The notes: generated by a model from the sequence alone, not told the origin. A DNA stretch of 64,000 nucleotides from an uncultured Gemmatimonadales bacterium (GCA_963798845.1 CAWCUS010000002.1:128001-192000); one strand, 5' to 3'; shown: positions 35,565 through 55,239, counted from the stretch's first letter. Made by a program: numbers and translations.

Positions 35565-36711
35565 ATGAAGGTAGGAGTGCCGCGGGAGGTGGCCCGGGGT
35601 GAGCGTCGGGTTGCCCTGGTCCCGGACACGGTGGCGAAGCTGGTGGGCTCGGGGATGGAAGTGGTGGTGGAGAAGGGGGCGGGGACCGAGGCAGGTTTCG
35701 CCGATTCTGCATACGCCAATGCGGGCGCGACGGTGGCGGATGACGCTGCCGTTTTTGCTGCCGACGTGGTCGTGAAGGTGGCGCCGCCGATGGTGGGCGC
35801 CGGCGCGGACGAGGTGGCGAAGCTGAAGGCCGGGGGCGCGCTGATCGCCTTCCTTCAGCCGCTGGTCTCGCCCGAGCTCGTGAACGGCCTGGCCGCGGCG
35901 AAGGTGACCAGCTTCAGCATGGAGCTGGTGCCGCGGATCACCGTGGCCCAGCGCATGGATGCTCTCTCGAGCCAGGCTACCGCCGCGGGCTACGTCGCCG
36001 CGCTGCGAGGGGCGCTGGATGTCGACGTTTTCTTCCCCATGCTCACCACGGCAGCGGGGACCATCCCGCCGGCCAAGGTGCTGGTGATCGGGGCCGGGGT
36101 AGCGGGGCTGCAGGCGATCGCCACGGCGAAGCGCCTGGGCGCGCGGGTGAAGGGCTTCGATATCCGCCCGGCCGCGGCCGAGCAGGTGGAGAGCCTGGGT
36201 GCCCAGTTCGTGGGCATCACGCTGGAGGAAGCCGAGACCAAGGGCGGCTACGCCAAGGAAGTGACGGCGGACCAGCAGAAGAAGGAGCACGAGCTGCTCC
36301 AGAAGATCTGCGCGGAGAGCGACGTCGTGATCACCACCGCTCAGGTGCCGGGCCGGAAGGCGCCGGTGCTGATCACGCGGGACATGGTGGAGGCCATGCG
36401 TCCGGGGTCGGCGATCGTGGACCTGGCCGCGGAGTCGGGCGGGAACTGCGAGCTGACGAAGGCGGGCGAGACGGTGGTGGAGAACGGCGTGCAGATCATC
36501 GGCCTCGTGGACGCGGCCAGTGTGCTGCCGAAAAACTCCAGCCAGAATGTACTCGAAGAACATCCACGAGCTGCTGAAGCACCTGTATGACGAGGAGGCG
36601 AAGCAGCTGAAGCTGGACTTCGAGGACGAGATCACGCGGGAGTCGTGCGTGACGCACGACGGGACAGTCGTGCACGAACGGACGCGCGCCGCCATCGGCG
36701 CGGGCGCCTGA
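35565..36711 (+). CDS. pntA: NAD(P) transhydrogenase subunit alpha part 1 (PntAA); +1 frameshift at ~36547
   Basis: GVPRE..GERRVA..P, PRI..AQ.MD.LSSQ, GAGVAGLQA, VDLAAE.GGNC; the C-terminal S.MYSKN...D..DEI continues in another frame. Confidence 0.92.
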
Positions 36712-36725
36712 GGAGGGGAAAGCAC

Positions 36726-37028
36726 ATGCAAGGCTACGACCTGCTGTTTTCGATCTACATCCTCGTACTCGCGATCTTCGTGGGCTTCGAGGTCATCACG
36801 AAGGTGCCGACGATCCTCCACACGCCGCTGATGTCCGGGTCCAACGCGATCTCGGGGATCACCATCGTGGGCGCGATCCTGGTGCTGTCGGCTCTCACCG
36901 AGGGAACGATTTCAACGATCCTGGGCGTGATCGCGCTCATCATGGCGACGATCAACGTGGTCGGCGGATTCGTGGTGACCGATCGCATGCTCCAGATGTT
37001 CAAGAAGAAGGAAGAACGGGAGGCCTGA
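36726..37028 (+). CDS. NAD(P) transhydrogenase subunit alpha part 2 (PntAB)
   Basis: KVP..LHTPLMSGSNAISG, NVVGGF.VTDRML.MF. Confidence 0.95.
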   Translation: MQGYDLLFSIYILVLAIFVGFEVITKVPTILHTPLMSGSNAISGITIVGAILVLSALTEGTISTILGVIALIMATINVVGGFVVTDRMLQMFKKKEEREA

Positions 37029-37029
37029 C

Positions 37030-38445
37030 GTGGATGCACAAATTGGAGGACCGCTGCCGGTCTTCATCAAGATTGCGTACCTGGTCGCGTCCGTCCTGTT
37101 CATCCTGGGGCTGAAGCGCCTCAGCTCCCCCAAGACGGCGCGGCAGGGCAACATGCTGGGCGCCCTCGGGATGCTCCTGGCCATCGTCGCCACGATGGTG
37201 GACGGCCAGGTGCTGCAGGGCGGGCTGGACTGGCTGTGGATCGTCGCGGGCATCGCCGCCGGCACCGGCATCGGCTGGTTCCTGGCGAAATGGGTGAAGA
37301 TGACGGCCATGCCGCAGATGGTGGCCATCTTCAACGGCTTCGGCGGCGGCGCGTCGGCGCTGGTCGCGGCGGTGGAGTTCCTGAAGCCGACGACGGCGGA
37401 CGCGACGACCACCGTCGCCCTCACCATAGTTCTGTCGGTGCTCATCGGCGCCGTGACGCTGTCGGGGAGCTTCCTGGCGTGGGCCAAGCTCGAAGGCCAC
37501 TTCGAGAAGGCGCTCACCTATCCGGGCGGCAACTTCGTCAACCTGCTCGTCTTTCTGGGCACGCTGGCGATCGGCGGCTACCTGACGGCCGTGCCCGGTG
37601 CGGATCCTTGGTGGTTCGTCGGCCTGTCGGCGCTCGCGCTCATCTTCGGCATCATGTTCGTCATGCCCATTGGCGGAGCGGACATGCCCGTGGTGATCGC
37701 GCTGCTGAACTCGTATTCCGGGCTCGCGGCTTCGGCCACCGGCTTCGTGCTGAACAACAACGTGCTGATCATCGCCGGGGCGCTGGTGGGGGCGTCGGGC
37801 ATCATCCTGAGCGCCATCATGTGCCGCGCGATGAACCGGTCGCTGGCCAACGTGCTCTTCAGCGCGTTCGGCTCGCAGACGGCGGCCGTGACGGCGGGCG
37901 AGGGTGGGCCGAAGATCGTCAAGGAGATCAACGCCGAGGATACCGCCGTGCTCATGTCCTACTCGGAGAGCGTGGTGATCGTCCCCGGCTACGGGCTGGC
38001 CGTGGCCCAGGCGCAGCACCAGGCGAGGGAGCTGGCCGACCTGCTGGCCGAGAAGGGTGTGAGCGTGAAGTTCGCGATCCACCCCGTGGCCGGCCGCATG
38101 CCCGGTCACATGAACGTGCTGCTGGCCGAGGCCAATGTGCCTTATGACCAGCTGTACGAGGCGGATGACATCAACAGCGAGCTCGAGCGCACCGACGTGG
38201 TGCTGATCCTCGGCGCCAACGACGTGGTGAACCCGGACGCGCGGACGAACGAGTCGAGCCCGCTGTATGGGATGCCCATCATCAACGCCGACCACGCGAA
38301 GAACACCATCGTGGTGAAGCGGAGCCTGAACCCGGGCTTCGCGGGGACGGACAACCCGTTGTTCTACAAGGACAACAACCGGATGCTGTTCGGCGATGCG
38401 AAGAAGGTGCTGACGGCGCTGGTGAGCGAGCTGAAGAAGGTGTAG
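37030..38445 (+). CDS. pntB: NAD(P) transhydrogenase subunit beta
   Basis: MT.MPQMVA.FNGFGG, IGGADMPVVI.LLNSYSG, PGYG.AVAQAQH, HPVAGRMPGHMNV. Confidence 0.96.
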   Translation: MDAQIGGPLPVFIKIAYLVASVLFILGLKRLSSPKTARQGNMLGALGMLLAIVATMVDGQVLQGGLDWLWIVAGIAAGTGIGWFLAKWVKMTAMPQMVAIFNGFGGGASALVAAVEFLKPTTADATTTVALTIVLSVLIGAVTLSGSFLAWAKLEGHFEKALTYPGGNFVNLLVFLGTLAIGGYLTAVPGADPWWFVGLSALALIFGIMFVMPIGGADMPVVIALLNSYSGLAASATGFVLNNNVLIIAGALVGASGIILSAIMCRAMNRSLANVLFSAFGSQTAAVTAGEGGPKIVKEINAEDTAVLMSYSESVVIVPGYGLAVAQAQHQARELADLLAEKGVSVKFAIHPVAGRMPGHMNVLLAEANVPYDQLYEADDINSELERTDVVLILGANDVVNPDARTNESSPLYGMPIINADHAKNTIVVKRSLNPGFAGTDNPLFYKDNNRMLFGDAKKVLTALVSELKKV

Positions 38446-38473: not shown

Positions 38474-38509
38474 AACCCGGCGCCGAGCGATCGGCGCCGG
38501 GTTATTTTT
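38474..38509 (+). terminator. Intrinsic terminator of the pnt operon
   Basis: Perfect 13-bp stem AACCCGGCGCCGA/TCGGCGCCGGGTT, GCGA loop, followed by ATTTTT. Confidence 0.85.
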
Positions 38510-39534
38510 CGGACCTGGTACCAGAATCCACATTTCTCCCCAGCTCGAGCCGCCGCGGGGCGCTGTTGTGCTCACCGCCGCAGGGGGTTTTGGGCGCCGT
38601 CGGCCGCAAATAGTTGGACACGCACTGCCGACTTACCCGCAGGTAGCGGGCGATGGCGCAGCGCGGGTATCCCTCCTCGCTCATTCGTCGAGCCATGGCG
38701 CGCCGCGCGCGCACGTGGTCACGGCGCTTGTCTCCGCACCGTACGGCGTCGATGTCCAGGCGGCGGCCCGGCTCGGCGGCAAGGGTACTCCGGGCAAGGT
38801 CGCGGAGGTCTGGGCGGCGGGGCCGGGGCGACCCGGCGACCGGCGGGGAACAGAACAGCGGGGCGAAGGCCTCAGCCCACCGCCCATCCCTACCGAGGAA
38901 TGGCGGCGGAGGAGGCGGCTCGATGGCCGGCGAACCGTCCAGTCTCTGGGCTCCGTCGCATGCCAGTCGCCAGGCGAGGTAACGATCGTAGCTCCTGCGC
39001 TGGCCGCCGGTCGCCGCTCCGCGCCGTGCGGCGAAAAGCTTCAGCCCCACGCGAACATCCACGGAAGAGGCGACCAAGTCGTTGATCGGGGCAGCGCCAC
39101 GAGCGTACAGCAGGTGCGAAGTCCATCGGTATTCAGACGCGTCCTGGCAGAGATCGGCGCGGACCGGGTTCAGGTGCGTGTAGACGATCGCGTTGCGGGC
39201 GTGGTCCGGGTCGATGCACGCCCGCTCGCGGAAGCGTCGCTCGAAGACGTGGCCTTCGATCGCGTGGCGGCGGTGGAGCAGTAGCGCGCTGCGTCGAAGG
39301 AGCGGGTGAAGAACGCGTCCGAGTGCGCAATCACCCTGCTGCACAACAAGAATGCAGGTGGTTCGGCATGACGGCGAATGCCAGGAGACGCGCGTCGGAC
39401 CCGGTGATGGCTGAAGCCATGAAGGCTGTGATCGAGTCGCGGACGTCCGGCGTGAACCAGGCGGCGTGCCCCTGCGTGCGCGCGGTCACGTGGAAGATGG
39501 TCCCGGGCAGGTACGGACGAGCAATGCGTGCCAT
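38502..39534 (-). mobile_element. Y1 HUH transposase (RAYT/IS200-like) with C-terminal DnaA_C-like HTH; +1 frameshift at ~39351
   Basis: MARIAR...PG..FHVT.R, AFAVMPNHLH (HUH), GHVFERRF, YTHLNPVRA.L......Y.W.SH (catalytic Tyr); C-terminal AR.....IAR.L.VS...VS. Confidence 0.88.
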
Positions 39535-39670: not shown

Positions 39671-40589
39671 GTGCCTGCGACCACGAGAGCGACGACGGGG
39701 AGAAAGGCGACGAAGTCGGCGAGCTTCCGGACCGTGTTCGGCGACCTGGCCGAGCTGACCAAGCCGGGCATCACGCGGCTCGTCGTATTCACCACGGGCG
39801 CGGGCTACCTCATGGCGGCGGGGCGGGAGATGGACTTCCTGCGCCTGTTCAACACCGTTTTCGGGGCCGCGCTGGCGTCGGCGGGGGCGAACGCGCTGAA
39901 CATGTGGTGGGAGCGGGAGACGGACGGGCACATGAAGCGGACGCGGATGCGGCCGCTGCCCGCCGGGCGAGTCTCGCCGCGGACGGCGCTGGGGCTGGCA
40001 CTGGTTCTGTCCGTTCTCGGGCTCGCGCACCTCGCCCTGTTCGTGAACCTGGAGACGCTGCTGCTGGTGGCGACCAGTCTGGTCACGTACATCCTCGTCT
40101 ACACGCCGCTCAAGCGACGGACCCACCACGCCACGCTCATCGGCGCGCTCCCGGGCTCGCTCCCGACGCTGGCCGGGTGGACGGCGGCCGGGCACCCGAT
40201 CACGCTCACCGCGCTGGCGCTCATGGGGGTCGTCTTCTTCTGGCAGAATGCCACACTTCTACGCGCTGGCCTGGGTTTATCGCGACGACTACGCCCGGGG
40301 AGGCATGCGCATGCTGACCTCGGTGGACCCGCGAGGGACGCGGCTCGGGCTCGAGAGCACGCTTTACTCGGCGCTGCTCCTCGTGACGAGCATGGTGCTG
40401 GTGGCCACGGGGCTGATCGACTGGGTCTACGGCGTGGGCGCGCTGGCGCTCGGCACGGTCATGGTCGTCCTGGGCGGGCGGCTCTGGCGGGTGCGGGAGG
40501 ACCGTCGCGCGTGGCATCTGTTCTTCGGCTCCATTCTTTATCTCCCCGCCCTCCTCGTCCTGATGCTGGTCGACCGCTTCTTCCTGTAG
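39671..40589 (+). CDS. cyoE: Protoheme IX farnesyltransferase (heme O synthase); +1 frameshift at ~40248
   Basis: LTKPGI, N...E...D..M.RT..RPLP.G, YT.LKR, IG..PG..P.L.GW, FWQ/MPHF.AL...Y..DY. Start position approximate. Confidence 0.92.
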
Positions 40590-40699
40590 ACGACGACGCC
40601 CTGCGGCTGCGCGGCGGATTCCCGCCGAGGCCGGCCCGGAGTTGCCTGCCGGGGGGCGGGGATGCTATCCGTTCCCGCCACGAGAGGAGGGGTAGGTCC

Positions 40700-41257
40700 A
40701 TGACGGCGACTGGGACGAGGGAGGGGCTCCGCCACAATGTCGAGCGGCTCTGGCCGGAGCTGGAGTGGATCGAGGATGGGGAGCTGCGGGAGCGGGTGGC
40801 GCGGACCTGGGAGCTGGCGCTGGAGCGGAGCCCGCTGGCGGCCGATGACCTGGAGCGGATCCCGTTCACGCTCCTGGTGAAGGACTGCGGCGCCACGTTC
40901 ATGCAGCACAAGCGCTGCGTGGTGCACATCGCCCGCGATGGCGCCCGCGCAATGCACGCGTTCATGGGCCATGCCCTGGCGATCGACACGGACACGGTGA
41001 TCGCCGGGGCGATCCTGGCCGATGTGGGCAAGCTCCTCGAGTACGAGAAGGAAGGCGACCAGACCCGCCAGAGCGCCCGCGGCCAGGCGCTCCGGCACCC
41101 GTTCACCGGCGTCGCCCTGGCGCTGGAGGCGGGCGTGCCCGACGCGATCTGCCACATCATCGCCGCGCACGCCGGGGAGGGCGACCTGGTGAAGCGGAGC
41201 ACGGAGGCGATCATCGTCCATCACGCAGACTTCATGGCCTACCTTCCGTTCCGGTAG
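40700..41257 (+). CDS. HD-domain (YhaM-like) protein with an AD variant motif
   Basis: H...V, AILADVGKLLEY, LRH...G, HII..H..EG, EA.IVH.AD; GGAGG RBS. Confidence 0.8.
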   Translation: MTATGTREGLRHNVERLWPELEWIEDGELRERVARTWELALERSPLAADDLERIPFTLLVKDCGATFMQHKRCVVHIARDGARAMHAFMGHALAIDTDTVIAGAILADVGKLLEYEKEGDQTRQSARGQALRHPFTGVALALEAGVPDAICHIIAAHAGEGDLVKRSTEAIIVHHADFMAYLPFR

Positions 41258-41374
41258 CCCGCCCCCGTCCACCGGGGACCGGCCGCCGGGCCGTTCAAGA
41301 CGCGCGGCCCTGCCTCCGAGCCGGGCGAGTCGGCCGAGCCGAGCCCCCTCTGCGCCCGTAGGGCCGAGCCAATC

Positions 41375-41451
41375 CTGTAAGGGAATCCCTCCTCCTGTCC
41401 GTCCGCCATCGTCGTCCGTCCCCGCGCGCGATTTCAAGGGATTCCCCACAG
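41375..41451. promoter_or_regulatory. Pair of GGGA(A/T)TCCC palindromic boxes upstream of prpD
   Basis: CTGTAAGGGAATCCCT (41375-41390) and AGGGATTCCCCACAG (41437-41451) are near reverse complements. Confidence 0.5.
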
Positions 41452-41512
41452 CCCCGGGTAGTCCTGTGCGGTAGCTTCGCAGGAGGACCGACTCTGACCC
41501 TCCGGAGGACTC

Positions 41513-42914
41513 ATGGCCACCACCGTCTCTTCCACGCCCGTCGGCACGGTCAGCGCGCGGCTGGCGGACCTGGGCGGCGGATCTCTCGTTCGACGATCTC
41601 GGCCCGGAGGCGATCCACGAGGCCAAGCGCTACCTGCTGGACTCGCTGGGGTGTGCGCTGGGGGGCTTCCGGCAGCACGACGTGAAGATCGCGCTGCAGG
41701 TGCTGGACGAGGTGGCGGGGGAGGGCCGGGCGACGGTGCTGGGGAGCGGCCGGCGGATGGACGTGGTGTCGGCGTCGCTGGCGAACGCGTTGATGATCCG
41801 CGTGATGGACTACAACGACATCTACTGGCAGCAGGACCCGTCGCACCCATCGGACCTGATCCCGGCGGCGCTGGCAATGGCGGAGCGGCAGGGACTGGGC
41901 GGGCGCGACGCGATCCTGGGGATCGTGCTGGGGCACGAGCTGGAGATGCGTTTCTGTGAAGCGGCGTTTCCGGGGATCCGGGAGCGCGGCTGGCACCACG
42001 CCACGCTGACGGCGTTCGTGTCGCCGGTGGTAGCAGGTCGGCTTCTGGGGCTGGACGCGGAGCGGATCCGGCACGCCATCGGGATCAGCGGCTCGAGCCA
42101 CGCCACCGTGGGCGGCGTGGTGGCGGGCAAGCTGTCGATGATGAAGAACACGGCGGACCCGATGGCCACGCAGGCGGGCGTGATGGCCGCGCTGCTGGCG
42201 GAGCGGGGCTACACGGGCCCTGAGGGGGTGGTGGAGGGGAAGGAAGGGCTGGTCCACGTCATGGGCCCGGAATGGAAGCTGGAGGTCCTGACCGAGGGCC
42301 TGGGGGAGAGCTGGCGGATCGAGCGGTGCGGGATGAAGGCGTTCCCGACGGAGGCGCTGACGCACGCGCCGATCTCCGCGGTGCTGGACGTGGTGATGGA
42401 GCACGACCTGAAGCCGGCTGAGATCGAGAAGGTGCGGATCCGGTCGCTGGCCCGGGCGGCGGACATCCTTGCGGACGCGAGCAAGTACGACCCGCGCACG
42501 AAGGAGACGGCGGACCACAGCCTGCCGTACGTGATCGCGGCTGCGATCGTGGACCGTCAGGTGACGCCGCGTCAGTTCGAGGCGGAGCGCATCATGGACC
42601 CTGAAGTCCGGGCCCAGCTGGCGAAGGTGGAAGTGGTGGCGGACGCGGAAATCGAGGCGGTGTTCCCGAAGCTGCAGCGTGTGCACGTGACCGTGCTGAC
42701 GAGGGACGGCCGCGAGCTGACGAAGCAGCTGGACTATCCGAAGGGGGATCCGCGGAACCCGCTCACGGATGCGGAGGTGGAGGCGAAGTTCGCGGCGCTG
42801 GCGGAGCCCGTGATGACGGGGGCGTCGCAGCGTCGGCTGGTGGACGCCGTCTGGTCGCTGGAGCGGCAGGACAGCGTGTCGGCGCTCATGCGGCTCGCGC
42901 GGGCGGACCGCTAG
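41513..42914 (+). CDS. prpD: MmgE/PrpD family dehydratase (2-methylcitrate dehydratase-like); +1 frameshift at ~41569
   Basis: LLDSLGCA.G, AN...IR..DYND, HPSD.IP, GWHH.T, G.LS.MK, K.FP.E...H, KETADHSLPY, YPKG.PRNP; GGAGG RBS. Confidence 0.88.
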
Positions 42915-43005
42915 GCCACGTGGGCGGGCCACCCCGGCCCGTCCGGCAATCCCAGTGGACCGCGGTCCCGAGGCGCGCGAGATCGGGCTGCGGGGAGGAG
43001 GATCG

Positions 43006-44955
43006 ATGGGCGCGACAATGGTCGAGAAGATCGCACGGGCCCACATGGTCGACGGGCCCGATCGCCCGCTCCGGCCCGGGGACATGATTTCGCTCCGGCC
43101 GCGGCACATACTGACGCACGACAACACGGCCGCGGTGATGTCGAAGTTCCGCGCAATCGGCGTGGAGCGGATCCATGACCCGCGTCAGCCGGTGATCGTG
43201 CTGGATCACGAGATCCAGAACCGCTCGCCCGAGAACCTGGAAAAGTACACGCGGATCCGTGCCTTCGCCCGTGAGCACGGGCTGGACTTCCATCCGGCGG
43301 GGACGGGGATCGGGCACCAGATCATCGTCGAGCGCGGCTATGCGCTCCCCGGCACGCTGGTGGTGGCGTCCGACTCCCACGCCAACACGTATGGCGCGGT
43401 TGGCGCGCTGGGCACGCCCGTGGTGCGCACGGACGCCGCCGCGATCTGGGCCACGGGGGAGTTCTGGTGGCAGGTGCCGGCGACCGTGCAGGTGGTGCTG
43501 GAAGGGGAGCTGCGACCGGGCGTCAGCGGCAAGGACCTGATCCTCACCCTGTGCTCGCTCTATCCGGCCGGGGAAGTGCTGAACCGGGTCGTGGAGTTCG
43601 CCGGGCCCGGGGTCGCCTCGCTGGACATGGCGGCGCGCATGACGGTGGCGAACATGACCACGGAGTGGGGGGCGCTCGGCGGGTGGTTCCCTGTGGACTC
43701 GCGCACGCTCGAGTTCCTGCGGGAGCGGAAGGCGAGGCTGGAGGCGGCGGACCACCATCGGATCACCGACGCGCAGCTCTTCGCGTGGGGCGCGGCTCCG
43801 CCGCGGCCGGACTCGGACGCCCGCTACGTGGCCCGGATCATCGTGGACCTGGGCAGGGTCAGCCCGTTCCTGGCCGGGCCGGACACGGTGCAGACGGGGC
43901 GGCCGGTGGCGGAGACGGAGGCGGACGGGATCCGCATCGACAAGGCGTACCTCCTTTCCTGCGTGAACGGTCGGCTGGAAGACCTGGAAGCGGCTGCGGA
44001 CGTGGTCCGCGGGCGTCGCGTCGCGCCGCACGTCTCGTTCTTCGTGGCGGCGGCGAGCCGGGAGATCCAGGAGAAGGCCGAGGCGAGCGGGGCGTGGGGC
44101 ACGCTCCTGGACGCGGGCGCCCGGGTGCTCCCGCCCGGCTGCGGCCCGTGCATTGGACTGGGAGAGGGGCTGCTCCAGGACGGGGAGGTCGGGATCTCGG
44201 CCACGAACCGGAACTTCAAGGGACGGATGGGCTCCCGCGACGCCCGCGTGTACCTGGCCAGCCCGGCCGTGGTGGCGGCGTCGGCGCTGGCCGGACGCGT
44301 AAGCAATGGGCGCGTCGCCGGCGGCATCCCGCCGTACGAGTTTCACCGGCTCGACCTGGCCGAGGAGGGCCCGGAGTCGGTGGAGATCATGGCGGGGTTC
44401 CCCGAACGGATCACGGGCCGCCTGGTCTTCGTTCCGCAGGAGAACCTGAACACGGACGGGATCTACGGTAAGGAGCACACGTACCGGGATCGGTCGGTGG
44501 CGGAGATGGCGGCAGCGGTCATGGCGAACTACGATCCGGAATTCGCGAGCCGCACCGCCGCGGGCGACGTCCTGGTGGGGACGCGGAACTTCGGCACGGG
44601 ATCCAGCCGGGAGCAGGCGGCCACCGCTCTCCAGGCGAAGGGGATCGCGCTGGTGATCGCGGAGAGCCTGTCGCAGACGTACCAGCGGAACGCGTTCAAC
44701 AACGGCTTCATCTGCCTGGAGTGCCCGTCGCTGGTGCAGTCGATCGAAAAGGCGCTGGCCGGGGAGATCGCGGAAGGGGAGCCCACGATCGTCACGGGTG
44801 ACGAGCTGAGCGTGGACTTCCGACGGGGGACCATCGAGTGGCGGCGCAAGACGTACCGTTTCCCGGCGCTCGGGCGGGTGCCGCAGAGCCTGGTGGTCGC
44901 GGGGGGCGTCGAGGCGAAGATCCGGGCGACGCTCGGGGGCAACGCAGACCGTTGA
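43006..44955 (+). CDS. lysF: Homoaconitase-like, large and small subunits fused (fungal Lys4/LysF type)
   Basis: THDNT, GIGHQ, SDSHAN.YG, RTDAAAIWATG..WWQVP, SCVN.R, CGPCIGLG.GLL..GEVGISATNRNFKGRMGS, NTDGIY.K, NFGTGSSREQAATAL. Confidence 0.85.
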   Translation: MGATMVEKIARAHMVDGPDRPLRPGDMISLRPRHILTHDNTAAVMSKFRAIGVERIHDPRQPVIVLDHEIQNRSPENLEKYTRIRAFAREHGLDFHPAGTGIGHQIIVERGYALPGTLVVASDSHANTYGAVGALGTPVVRTDAAAIWATGEFWWQVPATVQVVLEGELRPGVSGKDLILTLCSLYPAGEVLNRVVEFAGPGVASLDMAARMTVANMTTEWGALGGWFPVDSRTLEFLRERKARLEAADHHRITDAQLFAWGAAPPRPDSDARYVARIIVDLGRVSPFLAGPDTVQTGRPVAETEADGIRIDKAYLLSCVNGRLEDLEAAADVVRGRRVAPHVSFFVAAASREIQEKAEASGAWGTLLDAGARVLPPGCGPCIGLGEGLLQDGEVGISATNRNFKGRMGSRDARVYLASPAVVAASALAGRVSNGRVAGGIPPYEFHRLDLAEEGPESVEIMAGFPERITGRLVFVPQENLNTDGIYGKEHTYRDRSVAEMAAAVMANYDPEFASRTAAGDVLVGTRNFGTGSSREQAATALQAKGIALVIAESLSQTYQRNAFNNGFICLECPSLVQSIEKALAGEIAEGEPTIVTGDELSVDFRRGTIEWRRKTYRFPALGRVPQSLVVAGGVEAKIRATLGGNADR

Positions 44956-44985
44956 CGGGTCCCGGCGAGCGGATCCCGGTCAACG
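44950..44985. other. Intergenic stem-loop between the aconitase and dehydrogenase genes
   Basis: CGTTGAC/GTCAACG outer stem with GGG/CCC and TCC/GGA inner pairs, directly before the AGGAGG RBS. Confidence 0.45.
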
Positions 44986-44998
44986 CAAAAGGAGGAGC

Positions 44999-46213
44999 AT
45001 GAAGCACACGGTCGTGACAATGCCTGGGGACGGGATCGGCAAGGTGGTGCTGCCGGAGGCGCTGCGGGTGCTGGACGCGGTGGGTTTCGAGGCGGAGTAC
45101 GTCCACGGCGACATCGGCTGGGACTTCTGGGTCAGCGAGGGGAACGCGCTGCCGGAGCGGACCGTGGCGCTGCTGGCGCAGCACAGGCTGGGGCTGTTCG
45201 GCGCGATCACGTCGAAGCCGAAGACGGAGGCGGCGCGTGAGCTGAAGCGCGAGCTGAAGGACCAGGGCTACGTGTATTTCAGCCCCATCGTAGGACTGCG
45301 GCAGCGCTTCGATCTCGACATCTGCATCCGCCCCTGCCGTTCCTTCCCGGGGAACCCGCTGAACTTCGTCCGGCGTGATCCGGCGGGAGGCGTGGCCGAG
45401 CCGGCGGTGGATTCGGTGATCTTCCGTCAGAACACGGAAGGGCTGTATTCGGGGGTGGAGTGGACGAACCCGCCGAAGGGCGTGCGGGACGCGCTGGCGA
45501 CGCACCCGAAGTTCAAGCCGTTCACCGACACGCCGTCGCACGACCTGGCGATCTCGACGCGGATCTTCACGCGCCGCGCCTGCGCGCGGATCACGCGCGC
45601 CGCCTTCGAGTACGCGGTGAAGCACGGTTACGAGAGCGTGACGGTGTGTGAGAAGCCGAACGTGCTGCGGGAGACCAGCGGGATGATGGAAGAGGAAGCG
45701 AAGAAGGCGCACGAGGACTTCCCCGACATCCAGCTCTGGTCGACGAACATCGACGCGCAGATGATGTGGCTGACGAAGAACCCTGAAGACTACGGGGTCA
45801 TCGTCGCCGGGAACATGTTCGGCGACATCGTGAGCGACGGCTTCGCGGGGCTGGTCGGTGGCCTCGGTTTCGCCTGCTCGGGGAACCTGGGCGACAATGT
45901 GGCCGTCTTCGAGCCGACGCACGGCTCGGCGCCCAAGTACGAGAAGCTGGATCCGCCCATCGTGAACCCGATCGCCATGGTCCTGAGCGCGGCCATGCTC
46001 CTGGACCACGTGGGCGAGCGGGAGAAGGCGGAGCAGGTGCGGGCCGCGGTGGCGGCCGTGGTGCGCGATGGCAGCGTCCGCACCTACGACATGATGCGGA
46101 TCCCCGGCGGGCCCGGCGCGATCGCGCAGGGGGCCGCCAGCACCACTGAGCTGACCGACGCCATCATCGCCGCGCTGTCCGCGCGCGCAGTCGCGAGCGG
46201 GCAGGCGGGATGA
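44999..46213 (+). CDS. Isocitrate/isopropylmalate dehydrogenase family, homoisocitrate-dehydrogenase-like
   Basis: PGDGIG, LFGAITS, YFSPIVGLRQ.FDL...RP (similar to yeast Lys12 YSSPIVALR as recalled), RQNTEGLY, K.NV, NMFGDI.SD, FEP.HGSAP. Confidence 0.85.
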   Translation: MKHTVVTMPGDGIGKVVLPEALRVLDAVGFEAEYVHGDIGWDFWVSEGNALPERTVALLAQHRLGLFGAITSKPKTEAARELKRELKDQGYVYFSPIVGLRQRFDLDICIRPCRSFPGNPLNFVRRDPAGGVAEPAVDSVIFRQNTEGLYSGVEWTNPPKGVRDALATHPKFKPFTDTPSHDLAISTRIFTRRACARITRAAFEYAVKHGYESVTVCEKPNVLRETSGMMEEEAKKAHEDFPDIQLWSTNIDAQMMWLTKNPEDYGVIVAGNMFGDIVSDGFAGLVGGLGFACSGNLGDNVAVFEPTHGSAPKYEKLDPPIVNPIAMVLSAAMLLDHVGEREKAEQVRAAVAAVVRDGSVRTYDMMRIPGGPGAIAQGAASTTELTDAIIAALSARAVASGQAG

Positions 46214-47565
46214 GCGGGCCGGAGGCCGGCGTTTCGCCGGGCGCCCGAATGGCCGCCGGAGCGGCGGTGGTGGCGGGTCGGGGAGAGGCGGGGCGAGCCG
46301 GCGATGACGTCCGCTCCGACCTGCACGTCGTCGTGGAAGCGGGCGGCGACGCCGTGACGCTGGACGTGAGGTCGAAGGTGGCGTCGTTGTTCGGCGACGC
46401 GATCCGCGCCACCGTCCTCGAGACCCTCAATGCGTTCGGGGTGAGCGCCGCTCGCGTGGTCGTGGATGACAAGGGCGCCGTGCCCTGGGTGATCGCGGCG
46501 CGCGTGGAAGCCGCGGCCCGCGCCGCCGGCCTGGTGGAGCGGACCGGCGCCGCCGTTCCCTGCGCCGGAGGACGAGGGCCGGCGCTGGGTTTTCCGGCGA
46601 CGAGCCCGACCCCGAGGGACCGGCTCCGCCGGTCCCGCCTCTACGTCCCCGGAAACGAGCCCAAGTTCATGCCGAACGCGGGGCTGCACCGTCCGGACGG
46701 CGTGATCCTGGACCTCGAGGACTCGGTCCACCGGGGCGCGAAGCCGGCGGCCCGCCTGCTGGTCCGGAACGCGCTGCGCTGCGTCGATTTCGGCGCGGCC
46801 GAGCGGATGGTTCGCATCAATCAGCTTCCGCTCGGGCTGGAGGACCTGGAGGCCATCGTCCCGGAGCTCCCCAACCTGGTGCTGGTCCCGAAAGTGGAGG
46901 AGGCTGCGCAGGTGGCGGAGGTGGCCGCGCGGATCGAGGCGATCCGGTCGTCCGCTGGGCTGCCGTCGAAGGAGGCGCACCCGATCTGGCTGATGCCGAT
47001 CCTCGAGTCCGCGCTCGGGATCGAGAACGCGTTCGCGATCGCGCGCGCGTCGGTCACGGTTGCGGCGCTGACCATCGGGCTGGAGGACTACACGGCCGAC
47101 CTGGGCGTTGTGAAGACGAAGGAAGGTGCCGAGACGCTGTGGGCGAGGGCGCGTCTGGTGAACGCGGCCAGGGCGGCGGGCGTCCAGGCCATCGACTCGG
47201 TGTACGGCGACGTGGCGGACGTGGACGGGCTGCTGGCGTGGGCGCGGGCGTCGCACGCCATGGGCTTCGTGGGCATGGGGTGCGTGCACCCCCGCCAGAT
47301 CCGGGTGATCCACGCGGGCTTCGCCCCCACGCCGGAGGAGCTGGAGAAGGCACAGAAGATCGTGGCGGCGTTCCACGACGCGGAGGCGCGGGGCCTGGGC
47401 GTGGTGAGCCTGGGGAGCAAGATGATCGACCCGCCGGTAGTGCTGCGGGCCACGCGGCTGGTGGAGCGGGCGAGGGAGATGGGGGTTCTGGACGCAAGCG
47501 CGGCCGACGCGGGTGCGGTTGCGGCGTCGCCGGCCTCGAACGGGTCGGAGGGGGGTGGCGAGTGA
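46210..47565 (+). CDS. citE: Citrate lyase ACP (CitD)-beta subunit (CitE) fusion
   Basis: N-terminus AG....RSD..V...S.V...FG..I...V...L...GV......DKGA...I.ARV.AA (CitD); C-terminus RRS.LY.PGN, ILDLEDSV, VRIN, GLEDYTADLG, AIDSVY.D, HPRQI (CitE). Confidence 0.88.
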   Translation: MSGPEAGVSPGARMAAGAAVVAGRGEAGRAGDDVRSDLHVVVEAGGDAVTLDVRSKVASLFGDAIRATVLETLNAFGVSAARVVVDDKGAVPWVIAARVEAAARAAGLVERTGAAVPCAGGRGPALGFPATSPTPRDRLRRSRLYVPGNEPKFMPNAGLHRPDGVILDLEDSVHRGAKPAARLLVRNALRCVDFGAAERMVRINQLPLGLEDLEAIVPELPNLVLVPKVEEAAQVAEVAARIEAIRSSAGLPSKEAHPIWLMPILESALGIENAFAIARASVTVAALTIGLEDYTADLGVVKTKEGAETLWARARLVNAARAAGVQAIDSVYGDVADVDGLLAWARASHAMGFVGMGCVHPRQIRVIHAGFAPTPEELEKAQKIVAAFHDAEARGLGVVSLGSKMIDPPVVLRATRLVERAREMGVLDASAADAGAVAASPASNGSEGGGE

Positions 47566-49175
47566 GCGTGATGACGAAGGTCTCCACGGCGCCGTGGCTG
47601 GACGGGCCGGCGTGGGCGGAGCTGGTGGAGAACGCCGCGGGGCGGCAAGTGCCGCGGGTGGTGAACGGGGAGGCGCAGACGCCGTACGCCGGCGTGGCCG
47701 GCCATGCACCCGACGGCCGGAAGGCCGGTGCGGCCATCCGCTCCGCGCGCGACTATCCGGCGAGCGGCGACAAGCGATCGGGGACCCTGCGCGCGGCGCT
47801 GGAGGCGTGCGGGCTGCGGGATGGGATGACCCTCTCGACGCATCATCATTTCCGGAACGGCGACCGGGTGGCGGTGGCGGCGCTCCAGGCGGCCGCGGAG
47901 CTCGGGGCGAAAGGTCTGCGCTGGTTCCCCAGCGCATCGTTCCCCGCCCATGCGCCGGTGGTGGAGCTGATGGATCGGGGGGTGGTGCACCACATCGAGG
48001 GGAGCATGAACGGCGCCCTCGGCGACTACACGTCGAAGGGAAAGATGGCGGGACTCGGGGTCCTGCGCTCGCACGGCGGCCGGTGGCAGGCGATCCAGGA
48101 CGGCGAGGTGCACGTGGACATCGCGGTGATCGCGGCGCCGACGGCCGACCTGTTCGGCAACGCGGACGGCTCGCATGGCCCTTCCGCCTGCGGCTCGCTC
48201 GGCTTCGCTCTGGCCGACTCCATGTACGCCGACCGCGTGATCGTGGTGACGGACAACGTGGTGCCCTTCCCGTGCATCCCGTGGCAGATCCAGGGGAACA
48301 ACGTGGACCACGTGGTGGTGGTGGACTCGGTCGGGGATCCGTCGAAGATCGTTTCCGGCACCACCGAGATCACCAGGAGTCCCGACCGGCTGCTGATCGC
48401 GGAGTACGTGGCGCGTTTCCTCAAGGATGCGGGGATCATGCGCGACGGCTTCAGCTTCCAGGCCGGCGCCGGAGGGATCGCGCTGGCCTTCGTCGGCTAC
48501 CTGAAGGAAATGATGAAGGAAGCCGGGGTGAAGGCGAGGTTCGTCCGGGGCGGCTCGACGAAGTACCTGGTGGACCTGCTGCGGGAGGGGCTCACCGATT
48601 ACATCCTGGACGGGCAGACCTTCGACCTGGCGGGCGTCGCGTCCATCGGCAGCGACCCGCGCCACGTCGCCACGTCGCCGTTCACGTCCTACAACTACCA
48701 CGGCAAGGGGAACTTCGCCTCCATGGTGGATGCCGTCGTGCTCGGCGCCACGGAAGTGGATTTGGACTTCAACGCGAACGTGGTCACCCATTCCGACGGG
48801 ATGCTCCTGCACGGCATCGGCGGCTGGCAGAACTGCCTGTTCAGCGGGTGCACCATCCTGGCCGTGCCCGCGTTCAGGGACCGGATCCCTGTGCTGGTGG
48901 ACCGGGTCACCACGCTGACCGGGCCCGGCGAGCTGATCGACGTGGTAGTGACGGAGCGAGGGATCGCGATCAACCCGCGACGCGACGACCTGATCCGCGC
49001 CGCCGCTGGCTCCGACCTCCCGATCCGCCCACTGGCCGAGATCAAGGTGGAAGTGGACCGGATGATCGGGGGCGCGCCCTCGCCGGCGCGCGTGACCGAG
49101 CGCCCCGTCGCCATCGTGAAATGGGTGGACGGGACCGTGCTGGACACGGTGTACCAGGTGGCCAGTCCCGCGTAA
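47562..49175 (+). CDS. citF: Citrate lyase alpha subunit / CoA-transferase
   Basis: GMT.S.HHH.RNGD, RSHGGR..AI..GE, CGSLG.A..D, FSFQ.GAGG..LA, LGA.E.D..FN.NV, T.PG..ID..VTE.GIA.NP.R.DL, DGTV.D.V. Confidence 0.9.
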   Translation: MSVMTKVSTAPWLDGPAWAELVENAAGRQVPRVVNGEAQTPYAGVAGHAPDGRKAGAAIRSARDYPASGDKRSGTLRAALEACGLRDGMTLSTHHHFRNGDRVAVAALQAAAELGAKGLRWFPSASFPAHAPVVELMDRGVVHHIEGSMNGALGDYTSKGKMAGLGVLRSHGGRWQAIQDGEVHVDIAVIAAPTADLFGNADGSHGPSACGSLGFALADSMYADRVIVVTDNVVPFPCIPWQIQGNNVDHVVVVDSVGDPSKIVSGTTEITRSPDRLLIAEYVARFLKDAGIMRDGFSFQAGAGGIALAFVGYLKEMMKEAGVKARFVRGGSTKYLVDLLREGLTDYILDGQTFDLAGVASIGSDPRHVATSPFTSYNYHGKGNFASMVDAVVLGATEVDLDFNANVVTHSDGMLLHGIGGWQNCLFSGCTILAVPAFRDRIPVLVDRVTTLTGPGELIDVVVTERGIAINPRRDDLIRAAAGSDLPIRPLAEIKVEVDRMIGGAPSPARVTERPVAIVKWVDGTVLDTVYQVASPA

Positions 49176-49199
49176 CGGGAAGCGGCCAGAGGAGGAGGC

Positions 49200-49457
49200 A
49201 TGATCAAGATCCACATGGACCCGGGGCGGCTCTCGATCGAGGAGCTGCAGAACATCAGCCGGGCATTGCGCGGCACGTGCATCGACTGCGTGGAGCGGAG
49301 CGTGCCGGAGTGCTGCCGTCACAGCGACGAGGTCCGCCACTTCCTGGGCGCCATGGCGGACGCGGTGGACAGCGTGCGGCTGCGGAGGGAGCAGCGGGAT
49401 ACCGAGCTGGCGCTCGGCGTGGACCCCGACTCGGGGGAGTGGCTGGCGGGAGCCTGA
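49200..49457 (+). CDS. Small hypothetical protein with CxxC...CCxH motif
   Basis: Strong GGAGGAGG RBS; TCIDC...ECCRH. Confidence 0.65.
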   Translation: MIKIHMDPGRLSIEELQNISRALRGTCIDCVERSVPECCRHSDEVRHFLGAMADAVDSVRLRREQRDTELALGVDPDSGEWLAGA

Positions 49458-49465
49458 GCCGGGAC

Positions 49466-49879
49466 TCAGCCTGCGCGGCGATGCGCGCGGCGCTCGAGCA
49501 CCACCTGGCCGTCCACGACCATGAACCGGATGGCGCGGCTCGCGGCGTCGGGGAAAGCGGCCTGCAGGTGGCGGAAGCGGTCGTTGGAGACCACGCGGGC
49601 GTCCAGCTCGCGGGCGAAGGAGAGGATGAAGTAATCGGCGTCCGTACCCGCGGGGGCCTGCCGGATCCGACCGGCCGCCACGAGGGCCTCGTAGCCGTCG
49701 GGATCATCGATGGTGTGCCGCAGCGTCGCATCGACCAGGACGAGAGGGTCGAGGCCCTCCTCCTCCAGCTTCTGGCATACGGCCCGGATGTTGGCCAGAC
49801 GCGCCCCGCGACCCTCCACGGCGTGCGCGACGTTGGACCCATCGACGAGCACCACTTCCCGGCCTTCCCCTTCGGCCAT
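49466..49879 (-). CDS. Stand-alone NYN/PIN-fold ribonuclease (Zc3h12a-like)
   Basis: V.VDGSNVA, DADYFIL..A......VVSND.FR acidic active-site motifs; GGAG upstream. Confidence 0.8.
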   Translation of the reverse strand: MAEGEGREVVLVDGSNVAHAVEGRGARLANIRAVCQKLEEEGLDPLVLVDATLRHTIDDPDGYEALVAAGRIRQAPAGTDADYFILSFARELDARVVSNDRFRHLQAAFPDAASRAIRFMVVDGQVVLERRAHRRAG

Positions 49880-50094
49880 GAGACTCTCCTCCCGCGCGGC
49901 CGCCGGCTTTCACGGGCGTGCAACTGCCGTACCCGTCGCGGGCGCTGGCGGGGCGGTGCTGGCCGCGCCGCTCGCGGTTCGCTAACGTGATGCGTTCCGC
50001 GTCGTCGCGTCGGGCGGCCGCGGCACACCCCGACCGTTGCGCGGCCGGGGTCTTGCACTGCTCTCAACGGGTGCGACCCGCGAGGCATGCGCGC

Positions 50095-53508: not shown

Positions 53509-55239
53509 ATGGGTCACGATCAGAACGGCGACCGTATGCCGCGCCCCGATCGTTCCGCCGCCCCCTCCGCTCAGCCCCATCCAGACCGCACCGGCTCCGG
53601 AGAGGCCGGGGGCGGGCACCCGCTGCGCCGGATTCTCTGCGTGTTCCCGCAGTACGCCCGCTCGTTCGGCACGCTGCACCACGCGTATCCGCTGCACGGC
53701 CGCGCCCGCGCGTTCATGCCCCCACAGGGGCTGCTGGTCGTGGCCGGCGCGATCCCGGACCATTGGGAAGTGCGCTTCGTGGACGAGAACCTGGGCCGGG
53801 CCAAGGACGAGGACTACGAGTGGGCGGACGCCGTGTTCATCACCGGGATGCACGTGCAGCGCGACCGGATCCGGGAAGTGAACGCCACCGCGCACCGGCA
53901 CGGCCTCGTGACCGCGCTGGGGGGGCCGTCGGTCTCGGCGTGCCCGGAGTGGTACCCGGACGTGGACCTGCTGCACATCGGCGAGCTCGGCGATGGCACG
54001 GACGCGCTCTTCGCCCGGGTCGGCCGGACAGTCGATCGCCCGCGGGACCAGCTCACCTTCGAGACCACGGAGCGGCGGCCGCTGCACGAGTTCCCGCTCC
54101 CCGCGTACGAGCACATCGACGTCCGCGACTACTTCCTGGCGAGCATCCAGTACTCCAGCGGCTGTCCCTTCCGCTGCGAGTTCTGCGACATCCCGGAGCT
54201 GTATGGCCGCGTCCCTCGGCTGAAGACGCCGGAGCAGGTGTGCGCGGAGCTGGACGCGCTCATGGCGTCGGGCCCGCCGGGCGCCGTCTACTTCGTGGAC
54301 GACAACTTCATAGGGAGCCAGAAGGCGGCGCTTCAGCTCCTCCCGCACCTGGTGGAATGGCAGCGGCGGAACGGCTATCCCCTGAGCCTGGCGTGCGAAC
54401 TGTCGATCAACGTCGCCCGCAACGAGCGGATCCTGGAGCTCATGCGCGAGGCGTGGTTCCACACGGTGTTCGTCGGGATCGAGACGCCGGACGAGGACTC
54501 GCTGCGCGGGATCTCGAAGAAGCAGAACCTGGGGATGCCGATCCTGGAGGCGGTGGAGATCCTCAACTCGTACGGGTTCGAGGTGGTGTCGGGGATCATC
54601 ATGGGGCTGGACACGGACACGGAGGAGACGCCCGACCGGATCCTCGAGTTCATCGAGGCGTCCGCCATCCCGATGCTCACGATCAACCTCCTGTACGCGC
54701 TTCCGCGGACACCGCTCTGGCGACGCCTGGAGAAGGAGGGGCGGATCCTCTCGGACGGGGCGGGCGGCGATGAGTCGAACGTGGATTTCAAGCTCCCCCG
54801 CGAAGTGGTGCGGGAGGGCTGGCTGCGGGCGGTGCGCGAAGCGAACGCGCCCGAGGCGCTCTACCGCCGCTTCCAGCACCAGGTGGACCACACCTACCGG
54901 AACCGCTTCGACCCGGGAGAGAACCGGAGGGTGCCCGAGGGATCGCTCCGGAAAGGGCTCGGGATGCTGGCGCGCATCTTCTGGGAGGTCGGCGTGCGCA
55001 GCGATTACCGCCGCACGTTCTGGCGCTTCGCCCTGCCTGCGCTCAGGGAAGGCAGGATCGAGTCGCTGGTGCACGTGCCGATGGTGGCGCACCACCTGAT
55101 CCAGTTCGCCCGTGACTGTGACGCCGGTGTGGGCGAGTACTCCTTCTACTCCCCCGAGGGCACGCCCGGCCGCGCCCCGGCTGGAAAGCGCCGTGGCCAA
55201 CACTCGCTCGTCCACCTCGAGATGGGCCGCAGCGGATGA
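53509..55239 (+). CDS. hpnP: B12-binding radical SAM protein, hopanoid C-2 methylase (HpnP)-like
   Basis: RILCVFP.Y..SFGT..H.YPL....AFMPPQGLL, WADAVF..GMH.QR, LGGPSVSACP..YP, H.GELGD.TD, SIQYSSGCP..CEFCDIP.LYGR.PRLK (CxxxCxxC), EVVSGII.GLDTD, ESNVDF, VAHHLI. Colinear with Rhodopseudomonas HpnP as recalled. Confidence 0.82.
   Translation: MGHDQNGDRMPRPDRSAAPSAQPHPDRTGSGEAGGGHPLRRILCVFPQYARSFGTLHHAYPLHGRARAFMPPQGLLVVAGAIPDHWEVRFVDENLGRAKDEDYEWADAVFITGMHVQRDRIREVNATAHRHGLVTALGGPSVSACPEWYPDVDLLHIGELGDGTDALFARVGRTVDRPRDQLTFETTERRPLHEFPLPAYEHIDVRDYFLASIQYSSGCPFRCEFCDIPELYGRVPRLKTPEQVCAELDALMASGPPGAVYFVDDNFIGSQKAALQLLPHLVEWQRRNGYPLSLACELSINVARNERILELMREAWFHTVFVGIETPDEDSLRGISKKQNLGMPILEAVEILNSYGFEVVSGIIMGLDTDTEETPDRILEFIEASAIPMLTINLLYALPRTPLWRRLEKEGRILSDGAGGDESNVDFKLPREVVREGWLRAVREANAPEALYRRFQHQVDHTYRNRFDPGENRRVPEGSLRKGLGMLARIFWEVGVRSDYRRTFWRFALPALREGRIESLVHVPMVAHHLIQFARDCDAGVGEYSFYSPEGTPGRAPAGKRRGQHSLVHLEMGRSG

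Follow-up and report, generated by a model that had tools for sequence, protein, structure and literature searches.

Citrate lyase of Enterobacteria (CitDEF, EC 4.1.3.6) is built from an acyl carrier, a transferase (CitF) and a lyase subunit (CitE); in Escherichia coli the genes are arranged as citC-D-E-F-X-G, and CitC, CitG and CitX are needed to make and prime the prosthetic group of the carrier. A CitDEF-type complex annotated as citrate lyase acts as citramalate lyase in clostridia, where the gene clusters carry citCXG (PMC4682846). In the first half of the fungal alpha-aminoadipate pathway (Lys20/21, Aco2, Lys4/LysF, Lys12), two enzymes serve the two halves of the isomerisation: Lys4/LysF accepts homoaconitate and homoisocitrate as substrates but does not convert homocitrate, and the other half is carried out by an aconitase (PMC3556520, Table 1). 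For 2-oxoadipate, glutaryl-CoA and D-2-hydroxyglutarate are the known fates (PMC7286885). Here we describe a gene cassette that brings together homologues from several of these systems, located at positions 40,700 to 49,457 of a 64,000-nt stretch (the window; G+C content ∼71%) from an uncultured Gemmatimonadales bacterium (GCA_963798845.1, CAWCUS010000002.1:128001-192000).

The cassette comprises seven successive plus-strand genes, in line with the third-position G+C between 40.7 and 49.5 kb, and all seven are present as open reading frames (ORFs) in the orientation and order given by an earlier reading made without database searches (the sequence-only reading; Table 1). Conservation analysis showed that the cluster is a real, widely conserved operon and more than a chance arrangement. 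Our preferred interpretation, in which we place about even confidence, is that it encodes one module interconverting 2-oxoadipate + CO2 + NADPH and 2-oxoglutarate + acetate via homoisocitrate, cis-homoaconitate and homocitrate, with the catabolic direction being the most likely one. We infer substrate, direction and stereochemistry; the gene families, the conservation of the cassette, the catalytic residues and the adjacency of saccharopine-pathway genes in two related loci are observed.

Compared with citrate lyase and clostridial citramalate lyase, the cassette shares the carrier, the CitF transferase and the CitE lyase, but carrier and lyase are fused and their genes lie among those for a homoaconitase-type hydratase and a dehydrogenase. 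In contrast to the E. coli and clostridial clusters, no citC, citX or citG stands beside it, and neither does a citrate transporter or regulator. With the fungal aminoadipate pathway it has in common the homoaconitase equivalog family, a beta-decarboxylating dehydrogenase and the use of two enzymes for the two isomerisation halves (PMC3556520, Table 1). However, it has a lyase complex and no homocitrate synthase, its partner dehydratase is mostly a PrpD-family protein instead of an aconitase, and its dehydrogenase is of the NADP type and no closer to Lys12 (Schizosaccharomyces pombe, 140 bits) than to the Thermus enzyme (190 bits), with the direction likely reversed. The 2-methylcitrate cycle (PrpC, PrpD or AcnD/PrpF, AcnB, PrpB) likewise pairs a PrpD-family with an aconitase-family protein on a Si-type condensation product, but PrpC and PrpB were found neither in the window nor among the scanned neighbours of related loci, the PrpD-family protein shares only 25% identity with PrpD of E. 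coli, and the dehydrogenase needs a secondary alcohol. Methanogen 2-oxoacid elongation (AksA, AksD/E, AksF) is echoed by the best NCBIfam matches of the dehydrogenase, AksF2 (261.2 bits, cut-off 540) and AksF (245.8 bits, cut-off 500), and by the HacA-family hydratases of variant cassettes, whereas the scores stay far under the equivalog level, an AksA-type synthase is missing, the setting is bacterial and a lyase is present. Lysine catabolism via saccharopine, with 2-oxoadipate as the expected intermediate, shares homologues of its lysine-ketoglutarate reductase (LKR) and saccharopine dehydrogenase (SDH) in the two loci mentioned above; unlike the known route, which continues with 2-oxoadipate dehydrogenase or HglS, the cassette would give 2-oxoadipate a third fate, in which it is carboxylated to homoisocitrate and, after cleavage, ends as 2-oxoglutarate + acetate.

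Table 1. Genes of the cassette, with positions counted from the first nucleotide of the window.
Gene product	Position	Strand	Profile match
HD-fold protein, 185 aa, first cassette gene	40700..41257	+	TIGR00277 HDIG, 28.9 bits (cut-off 27.6)
Protein of the MmgE/PrpD family (frame broken near 41,571), candidate dehydratase acting on the tertiary-alcohol isomer	41513..42914	+	Pfam
Fused aconitase-family hydratase, fungal homoaconitase type, 649 aa	43006..44955 (ORF open from GTG 42955)	+	TIGR00139
Beta-decarboxylating dehydrogenase, isocitrate/homoisocitrate/isopropylmalate family, NADP-type signature	44999..46213	+	Pfam Iso_dh, 251 bits
CitD-CitE fusion (carrier + lyase beta subunit)	46210..47565	+	Pfam ACP, 64.8 bits; HpcH_HpaI, 167.6 bits
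CitF-type acyl-ACP:carboxylate transferase (lyase alpha subunit)	47562 (GTG) or 47571 (ATG)..49175	+	Pfam CitF, 425.5 bits
Small Cys-rich ORF, 85 aa, good ribosome-binding site (RBS)	49200..49457	+	no Pfam/NCBIfam family

A scan of a collection with one genome per species returned at least 590 pattern-matched stretches that encode a relative, and the best 80 were examined as loci (designated by L numbers), whose gene content was determined by tblastn with the cassette proteins. The canonical order HD-PrpD-hydratase-dehydrogenase-CitDE-CitF is found in 38 of the 80 loci at 54–82% protein identity, and L002, L005 and L006 keep the same order without the PrpD-family gene. Upstream sequence of at least 5.6 kb is available for 54 loci, and these two groups make up 41 of them; 13 loci are arranged differently, and in the other 26, which have less than 5.6 kb upstream, the full order was not judged, with the dehydrogenase adjoining CitDE in 14 of them. 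CitF lies downstream of CitDE in 77 of the 80. Judged by their record titles, the loci come from Gemmatimonadota, Acidobacteriota, Latescibacterota, Eisenbacteria, Bacteroidota, Cloacimonadota, Chloroflexota and other groups, so that the conservation across genomes which the sequence-only reading had proposed to check is borne out in several phyla. Clustering of the flank ORFs of the 80 loci revealed lineage-specific neighbours only, with no common regulator, transporter, synthase or citC/X/G, which makes the six genes look like a unit complete in itself. Within this unit, the isomerase part varies, and the HD protein, the dehydrogenase and the lyase genes stay constant.

Families were assigned with Pfam and NCBIfam profiles, using the equivalog cut-offs of the latter, and the Pfam scan of the window covered 63 translated stretches. 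The hydratase carries the Pfam domains Aconitase and Aconitase_C fused in one protein and passes the homoaconitase equivalog TIGR00139 (666.2 bits, cut-off 529.9) but not the LeuC/LeuD cut-offs, in agreement with the homoaconitase (LysF) type proposed by the sequence-only reading. An RBS precedes its ATG, at which the homologues also begin. The cluster ligands Cys319, Cys379 and Cys382 are invariant in 37 sequences, with a spacing that we take to be that of the Fe-S ligands of the family. In the swivel loop, Lys489 and Arg494 are near-invariant, and the same loop position holds hydrophobic residues in the isopropylmalate isomerase of Methanocaldococcus jannaschii and an Arg in the homoaconitase of that organism. 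The nearest Atlas cluster, "Homoaconitase, mitochondrial family", mixes bacterial with fungal homoaconitases (Mucoromycota), which serves as a lead and not as a test. Among solved structures, the M. jannaschii isopropylmalate/citramalate isomerase lies nearest to the large aconitase domain with 242 bits, against 235 bits for homoaconitase. By analogy with the fungal enzymes, the hydratase would act on cis-homoaconitate and homoisocitrate only; the restriction of LysF to this half-reaction, given in the sequence-only reading, agrees with Table 1 of PMC3556520.

The dehydrogenase is 54–79% identical across loci and misses all isocitrate dehydrogenase equivalog cut-offs of NCBIfam; its best PDB match is the Thermus homoisocitrate dehydrogenase, an enzyme that is also active on isocitrate. 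Relative to E. coli Icd, the catalytic and metal-binding residues R119, R129, R153, Y160, K230, D283, D307 and D311 are all kept. Of the pair S113 and N115, which binds the gamma-carboxylate of isocitrate, the Ser is kept as well, and N115 is replaced by Ile in 42 of 42 family members, all of which share an invariant "SPIV" motif; the N115/V116 positions read Ile-Val here and Leu-Leu in E. coli LeuB. The dehydrogenase also retains K344, Y345, V351, Y391 and R395, which we take to be the NADP determinants of Icd, and this suggests that it uses NADPH.

All three lyase components of the window stay below the NCBIfam equivalog cut-offs for citrate lyase, with 62.0 bits for citD (cut-off 63.5), 262.8 bits for citE (443.4) and 467 bits for CitF (TIGR01584, 501.45). 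The CitE and CitF parts are 38% and 39% identical to their E. coli counterparts, and the solved relative nearest to the CitE domain is the human citramalyl-CoA lyase CLYBL (158 bits). The CitD-CitE fusion recurs in all 120 best homologues listed. The genes of dehydrogenase and CitDE share an ATGA overlap as described in the sequence-only reading, whereas the GTGA overlap that it placed between CitDE and CitF is just one of two equally possible starts: GTG 47562, overlapping the CitDE stop, or ATG 47571, five bases later.

The second gene of the cassette encodes the two-domain MmgE/PrpD architecture (MmgE_PrpD_N 239.5 bits, MmgE_PrpD_C 156.7 bits), and its orthologues are 67–78% identical in the 38 canonical loci. 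It misses every PrpD equivalog cut-off (105.8 bits against 950, 86.2 against 575 and 63.7 against 458), and among solved proteins it lies closest to IDS epimerase, with 146 bits, and to cis-aconitate decarboxylase, with 110 bits; true PrpD reaches ∼58 bits. To judge from these scores, "prpD" is a family label only for this gene. Its place is taken by other enzymes in variant cassettes: L059, L064 and L069, the latter two from Cloacimonadota, have two aconitase-family genes of the HacA/LeuC type and no PrpD, and L073 combines a split aconitase-family hydratase with PrpD. The hydratases of the variant cassettes score 251–339 bits and thus stay below the TIGR00139 cut-off. A second, interchangeable dehydratase therefore usually accompanies the first, in what amounts to non-orthologous replacement. 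An exchange of PrpD for an aconitase-family enzyme (AcnD/PrpF) has a precedent in the methylcitrate cycle. A second dehydratase also fits what the fungal aminoadipate pathway needs, because Lys4/LysF leave the homocitrate half to aconitase (PMC3556520, Table 1). The proposal of the sequence-only reading that PrpD supplies the missing dehydration is thus supported as far as a second dehydratase is usually present; the PrpD-family gene itself is frameshifted here, absent from L002, L005 and L006, and replaced by an aconitase-family gene elsewhere.

The strongest clue to the substrate comes from Cloacimonadota. In two divergent loci, L064 (55% GC) and L079 (38% GC), CitDE is immediately preceded on its strand by two genes of the saccharopine pathway, at gaps of 10 and 122 bases. 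One encodes a saccharopine dehydrogenase (Pfam Sacchrp_dh_NADP and Sacchrp_dh_C), the other a protein homologous to the LKR domain of human aminoadipic semialdehyde synthase (AASS; 267 bits, E = 2e-78; 79 bits with yeast Lys1), and the two proteins are 71% and 55% identical between the loci. L064 has the order SDH, LKR, CitDE, CitF, dehydrogenase, HD, hydratase, hydratase. This adjacency is context evidence independent of the cassette enzymes, and because LKR and SDH genes adjoin CitDE in both loci, it ties the module to aminoadipate metabolism.

In the proposed scheme, the NADP-type dehydrogenase would carboxylate 2-oxoadipate reductively to homoisocitrate, which the fungal-type homoaconitase would dehydrate to cis-homoaconitate. 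The PrpD-family protein, or the second aconitase-family protein of other cassettes, may then hydrate cis-homoaconitate to the tertiary alcohol. CitF would load homocitrate on the carrier in exchange for acetate, and the CitE domain would cleave the carrier-bound acid into 2-oxoglutarate and acetyl-carrier, as in the citrate-lyase cycle. Citrate lyase is pro-3S specific and removes the pro-S arm, and aconitase-type enzymes shift the hydroxyl to the pro-R arm and handle the (R) isomer; PrpD is the syn-type (de)hydratase of the methylcitrate cycle. By homology, the lyase of the cassette would handle (S)-homocitrate and call for a PrpD-type syn hydratase. The pairing of a PrpD-type hydratase with a homoaconitase could thus be explained, because a lyase that releases the hydroxyl-bearing arm needs (S)-homocitrate and aconitases give the (R) form. 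As the lower half of lysine/aminoadipate breakdown, the module would, together with LKR, SDH, an aldehyde dehydrogenase and a transaminase, convert lysine + 2-oxoglutarate + CO2 to 2 glutamate + acetate in a redox-balanced manner.

Several observations favour the cleavage, or catabolic, direction. Since the carrier-bound lyase uses neither CoA thioester hydrolysis nor ATP, an estimate from textbook values favours cleavage at cellular concentrations. The NADP residues, the pntAB genes upstream of the cassette both here and in L002, and an LKR homologue closer to the catabolic AASS than to the biosynthetic Lys1 point the same way, as do the genes for acetyl-CoA synthetase, formiminotransferase-cyclodeaminase and peptidases in the neighbourhood of some loci. 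Only tentatively, and as a possibility rather than an expectation, do we extend this to a widespread "reverse aminoadipate" route that would run from lysine via saccharopine, aminoadipate, 2-oxoadipate, homoisocitrate and (S)-homocitrate to a carrier-bound homocitrate lyase and yield 2-oxoglutarate + acetate. Such a route would be independent of oxygen, CoA, B12 and ATP and redox-neutral.

A number of findings weigh against the homocitrate module. The PrpD-family gene is broken in the window and missing in L002, L005 and L006; frameshifted here and lacking in three otherwise identical cassettes, it is therefore not indispensable in cis. In the dehydrogenase, S113, T105 (as Ser) and all other isocitrate-binding residues of Icd except N115 are kept, so that isocitrate remains a possible substrate, and we know of no precedent for the reductive carboxylation of 2-oxoadipate. 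The CitF of a Cloacimonadota variant (L069) even exceeds the citrate-lyase alpha cut-off (528.6 bits against 501.45). Neither the window stretches nor the scanned neighbours of the 80 loci, which do not include every flank ORF, contain citC, citX or citG, and a MAFFT alignment places Ser14 of E. coli CitD opposite an invariant Ala27, whereas the coordinates of the hidden Markov model (HMM), in which carrier residues 30/31/34 correspond to profile positions 9/10/10, favour the invariant Ser36-Asp37. The saccharopine genes occur in only two of the 80 loci, with none in the window or within ∼10 kb in the other 78; five loci are from Cloacimonadota, of which two start at CitDE without judgeable upstream sequence, and L079 shows just CitDE-CitF after the saccharopine genes before its contig ends. 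In the scanned neighbours, no aminoadipate-semialdehyde dehydrogenase was seen beside the cassette, and the sole aminotransferases nearby are a class-V enzyme in L059 and a DegT-type enzyme in L072. The homocitrate/tricarboxylate pathway drawn by the sequence-only reading is thus partly supported, by conservation, the homoaconitase type, the second dehydratase and the saccharopine context, and weakened by the dispensable PrpD and the isocitrate residues of the dehydrogenase.

These points lead to alternative substrates for the same enzymes. The cassette could be a citrate/isocitrate module, which we consider unlikely, that converts 2-oxoglutarate + CO2 + NADPH via isocitrate and cis-aconitate to citrate and then to acetate + oxaloacetate; it would represent the reductive half of the citric-acid cycle without its ATP cost, and an equally doubtful role in the catabolism of glutamate, histidine or peptides or in fermentation would follow. 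The retained Icd residues, including S113 and the five presumed NADP residues, the activity of the Thermus enzyme on isocitrate, and a CitF score that comes close to the citrate-lyase alpha cut-off here and exceeds it in L069 speak for such a module, and the formiminotransferase-cyclodeaminase genes after CitF in L005 and L007, peptidase and acetyl-CoA synthetase neighbours in several loci and a database protein joining an HD homologue to urocanase would suit it. On citrate, however, a second dehydratase would be superfluous, because ordinary aconitase performs both half-reactions; the hydratase is of the homoaconitase type, the Ile at the N115 position is universal in the family, CitE falls far below its equivalog cut-off, and the saccharopine genes of L064 and L079 point more directly to 2-oxoadipate. 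We regard as improbable a citramalate or alkylmalate variant with an (S)-citramalate or 2-alkylmalate lyase, in which 3-methylmalate and citraconate would be the intermediates between 2-oxobutyrate + CO2 and pyruvate + acetate; another 2-oxo acid could take the place of 2-oxobutyrate and would then be linked to the 2-oxo acid next shorter in length instead of pyruvate. That CitDEF-type complexes can have a substrate other than citrate is known from the clostridial enzyme (PMC4682846), and the sequence-only reading had named this alternative; it gains from CLYBL as the nearest solved relative of CitE, from the slightly better match of the large aconitase domain to the isopropylmalate/citramalate isomerase, from the Ile-Val pair at the N115/V116 positions, where LeuB has Leu-Leu, and from the same stereochemical need of (S)-citramalate for a syn-dehydratase. 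It loses with the near-invariant Lys and Arg of the swivel loop, where the isopropylmalate isomerase of M. jannaschii has hydrophobic residues, with a hydratase that passes the homoaconitase and not the LeuC/LeuD cut-offs, and with saccharopine genes that are unconnected to such substrates. Moreover, the clostridial clusters carry citCXG (PMC4682846), and the cassettes do not.

The module could also run in the opposite direction, as a synthase-free elongation of 2-oxoglutarate with acetate to 2-oxoadipate, which would be used for lysine, through aminoadipate and saccharopine, or for some other compound derived from aminoadipate, a possibility to which we attach little probability. The enzymes indeed correspond to those of the first half of the fungal aminoadipate pathway, with the lyase replacing homocitrate synthase, saccharopine dehydrogenase and LKR/Lys1-type enzymes are also biosynthetic in fungi, and the cassette lies in housekeeping surroundings with no catabolic regulator or transporter of its own. 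Against this, condensation from free acetate would be thermodynamically unfavourable at cellular concentrations, as estimated from textbook citrate-lyase values, neither an aminoadipate reductase nor a LysW system turned up in the window or the scanned loci, and both the NADP-type cofactor site and the AASS-like LKR argue for the opposite direction. None of the genes for lysine biosynthesis via alpha-aminoadipate (homocitrate synthase, LysW/X/Y/Z/J/K, Lys2) was found within the window. The absence of synthases, prpB and lysW/X/Z noted in the sequence-only reading was confirmed by the Pfam scan, as the 63 stretches include no citrate, methylcitrate or homocitrate synthase, PrpB, LysW/X/Z or CitC/G/X. 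A methylcitrate variant, which that reading had also offered, was ruled out because 2-methylisocitrate has no secondary alcohol that the dehydrogenase could oxidise. A secondary-metabolite cluster was likewise rejected: genes for polyketide synthases, nonribosomal peptide synthetases and tailoring enzymes are missing, and the cassette occurs in varied housekeeping contexts.

Each enzyme family of the cassette is known; what we did not find described is the way they are combined, a fused carrier and lyase that lacks citCXG, and the homocitrate lyase that the cassette implies. A literature search, whose coverage excluded subscription journals, returned no description of the cassette or of a homocitrate lyase, and Cloacimonadota genome papers contained no mention of saccharopine, aminoadipate, homocitrate, homoaconit-, lysine or citrate lyase. 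If the homocitrate reading is true, the cassette would add homocitrate lyase to the known enzyme activities and open a new route of lysine/2-oxoadipate breakdown, and the citrate-lyase machinery would have been recruited beyond citrate and citramalate. Fungal homoaconitase would gain a bacterial counterpart, the bacterial hydratase being the closest prokaryotic relative of fungal Lys4. Acidobacteriota, Gemmatimonadota, Cloacimonadota and the other carriers are abundant in soils, sediments and digesters, with little biochemistry available. Automatic annotation pipelines would label the genes as citrate lyase, homoaconitase and 2-methylcitrate dehydratase, that is, as members of three unrelated pathways.

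The HD protein is as conserved as the enzymes, with orthologues of 57–84% identity in 44 loci (45 sequences). It is a constant core member of the cassette to which the scheme of the sequence-only reading assigns no role. Pfam HD matches 14 of the 45 orthologues and not the copy in the window. The H...HD...D metal motif is incomplete, as the His of the HD pair is replaced by Ala (LADVGK) in at least 90% of the 45 sequences. An AlphaFold model (pLDDT 91.2) shows an HD-type helical domain that is remote from solved structures: Foldseek against the PDB gave YhaM as the best match (E = 8e-5, TM 0.56), followed by the cyanamide hydratase Ddi2, and a sequence search of the PDB gave no match below E = 0.18. 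A search of the Atlas returned solely "HD domain protein" clusters. In two groups of database proteins (P0129 with 16 members and P0130 with 6), a 45%-identical HD homologue is fused behind the swivel domain of aconitase-X (PF01989), and this suggests, from sequence comparison, that the HD protein may work with aconitase-type dehydratases. If so, it would be a new enzyme, and the cassette would provide a function-linked context for an uncharacterised HD-fold family. A predicted complex of hydratase and HD protein had a score of 0.00 in a run without controls and speaks neither for nor against binding. In another database protein, P0128, an HD homologue is linked to urocanase.

The small Cys-rich ORF at the end of the cassette, counted as part of the unit in the sequence-only reading, has tblastn matches in only two of the 80 loci, L002 (74%) and L031 (49%). 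It is lineage-specific and probably lies outside the conserved module.

The PrpD-family gene contains a one-base frame change near 41,571: its ATG, preceded by a good RBS, lies in one frame and the PrpD homology beyond in another. The N-terminal 20 residues match the N-termini of homologues, yet are out of frame with the remainder, and the first standard in-frame start past the break is GTG 41682. In contrast, the hydratase, the dehydrogenase, CitDE and CitF align with their homologues from end to end. Similar changes occur nearby. In the pntA1-pntA2-pntB transhydrogenase cluster (35502–38445), which lies upstream of the cassette here as it does in the closest related locus L002, pntA is frame-changed near 36,544 relative to L002, such that the C-terminal ∼48 residues that PntA1 has in L002 are shifted to another frame. 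A UbiA-family prenyltransferase gene (39782–40589), whose product we assume to be heme O synthase-like, is split over two frames near 40,247, whereas the L002 copy is in a single frame. Between pntB and this gene, a minus-strand gene (38502–39534) without a Pfam match, which we take from its motifs to be IS200/Y1-transposase-like, also runs in two frames. Programmed frameshifting at the PrpD break was ruled out, as no slippery or rare-codon context is visible and the PntA, UbiA-family and IS200-like genes show similar changes. Because the frame changes also hit housekeeping genes nearby, we consider assembly error likelier than gene decay.

Other neighbours are restricted to individual loci. 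An ADP-forming acetyl-CoA synthetase (ATP-grasp_5, CoA_binding_2, Succ_CoA_lig) is encoded after CitF on the same strand in L003 (12776–14905), L015 (12776–14998) and L020 (10948–13245), with a 29-base gap in L003 and L015 and overlapping called ORFs in L020. A formiminotransferase-cyclodeaminase, which acts in the conversion of histidine to glutamate, directly follows CitF in L005 (12832–14649) and L007 (2902–4725), and peptidase genes lie near the cassette in several loci. Genes of a Na+-translocating biotin decarboxylase (carboxyltransferase, OAD gamma, biotin carrier, OAD beta) are found directly upstream of CitDE in L065 (6194–9956), and the carboxyltransferase alone was identified in L078 (7688–9244).

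In the window itself, a promoter and terminator scan of positions 40400–49950 gave nothing exceeding shuffled expectation. A small gene for a NYN-domain (Zc3h12a-like) ribonuclease on the minus strand (49466–49879) converges on the end of the operon. Near the left end of the window (1066–4598, minus strand), an ORF for an ECF sigma factor (3786–4598) overlaps a Ser/Thr kinase-TPR ORF (1069–4254) in another frame by ∼470 bases; the overlap could come from long open frames upstream of two separate genes or from another frame change. Downstream of the cassette, the region 53509–56255 encodes a B12-binding radical SAM protein (DUF4070) and, after it, a membrane protein of the HpnL-like flippase family (TIGR03476, 197.7 bits against 195.65), a pair that looks lipid- or hopanoid-related.

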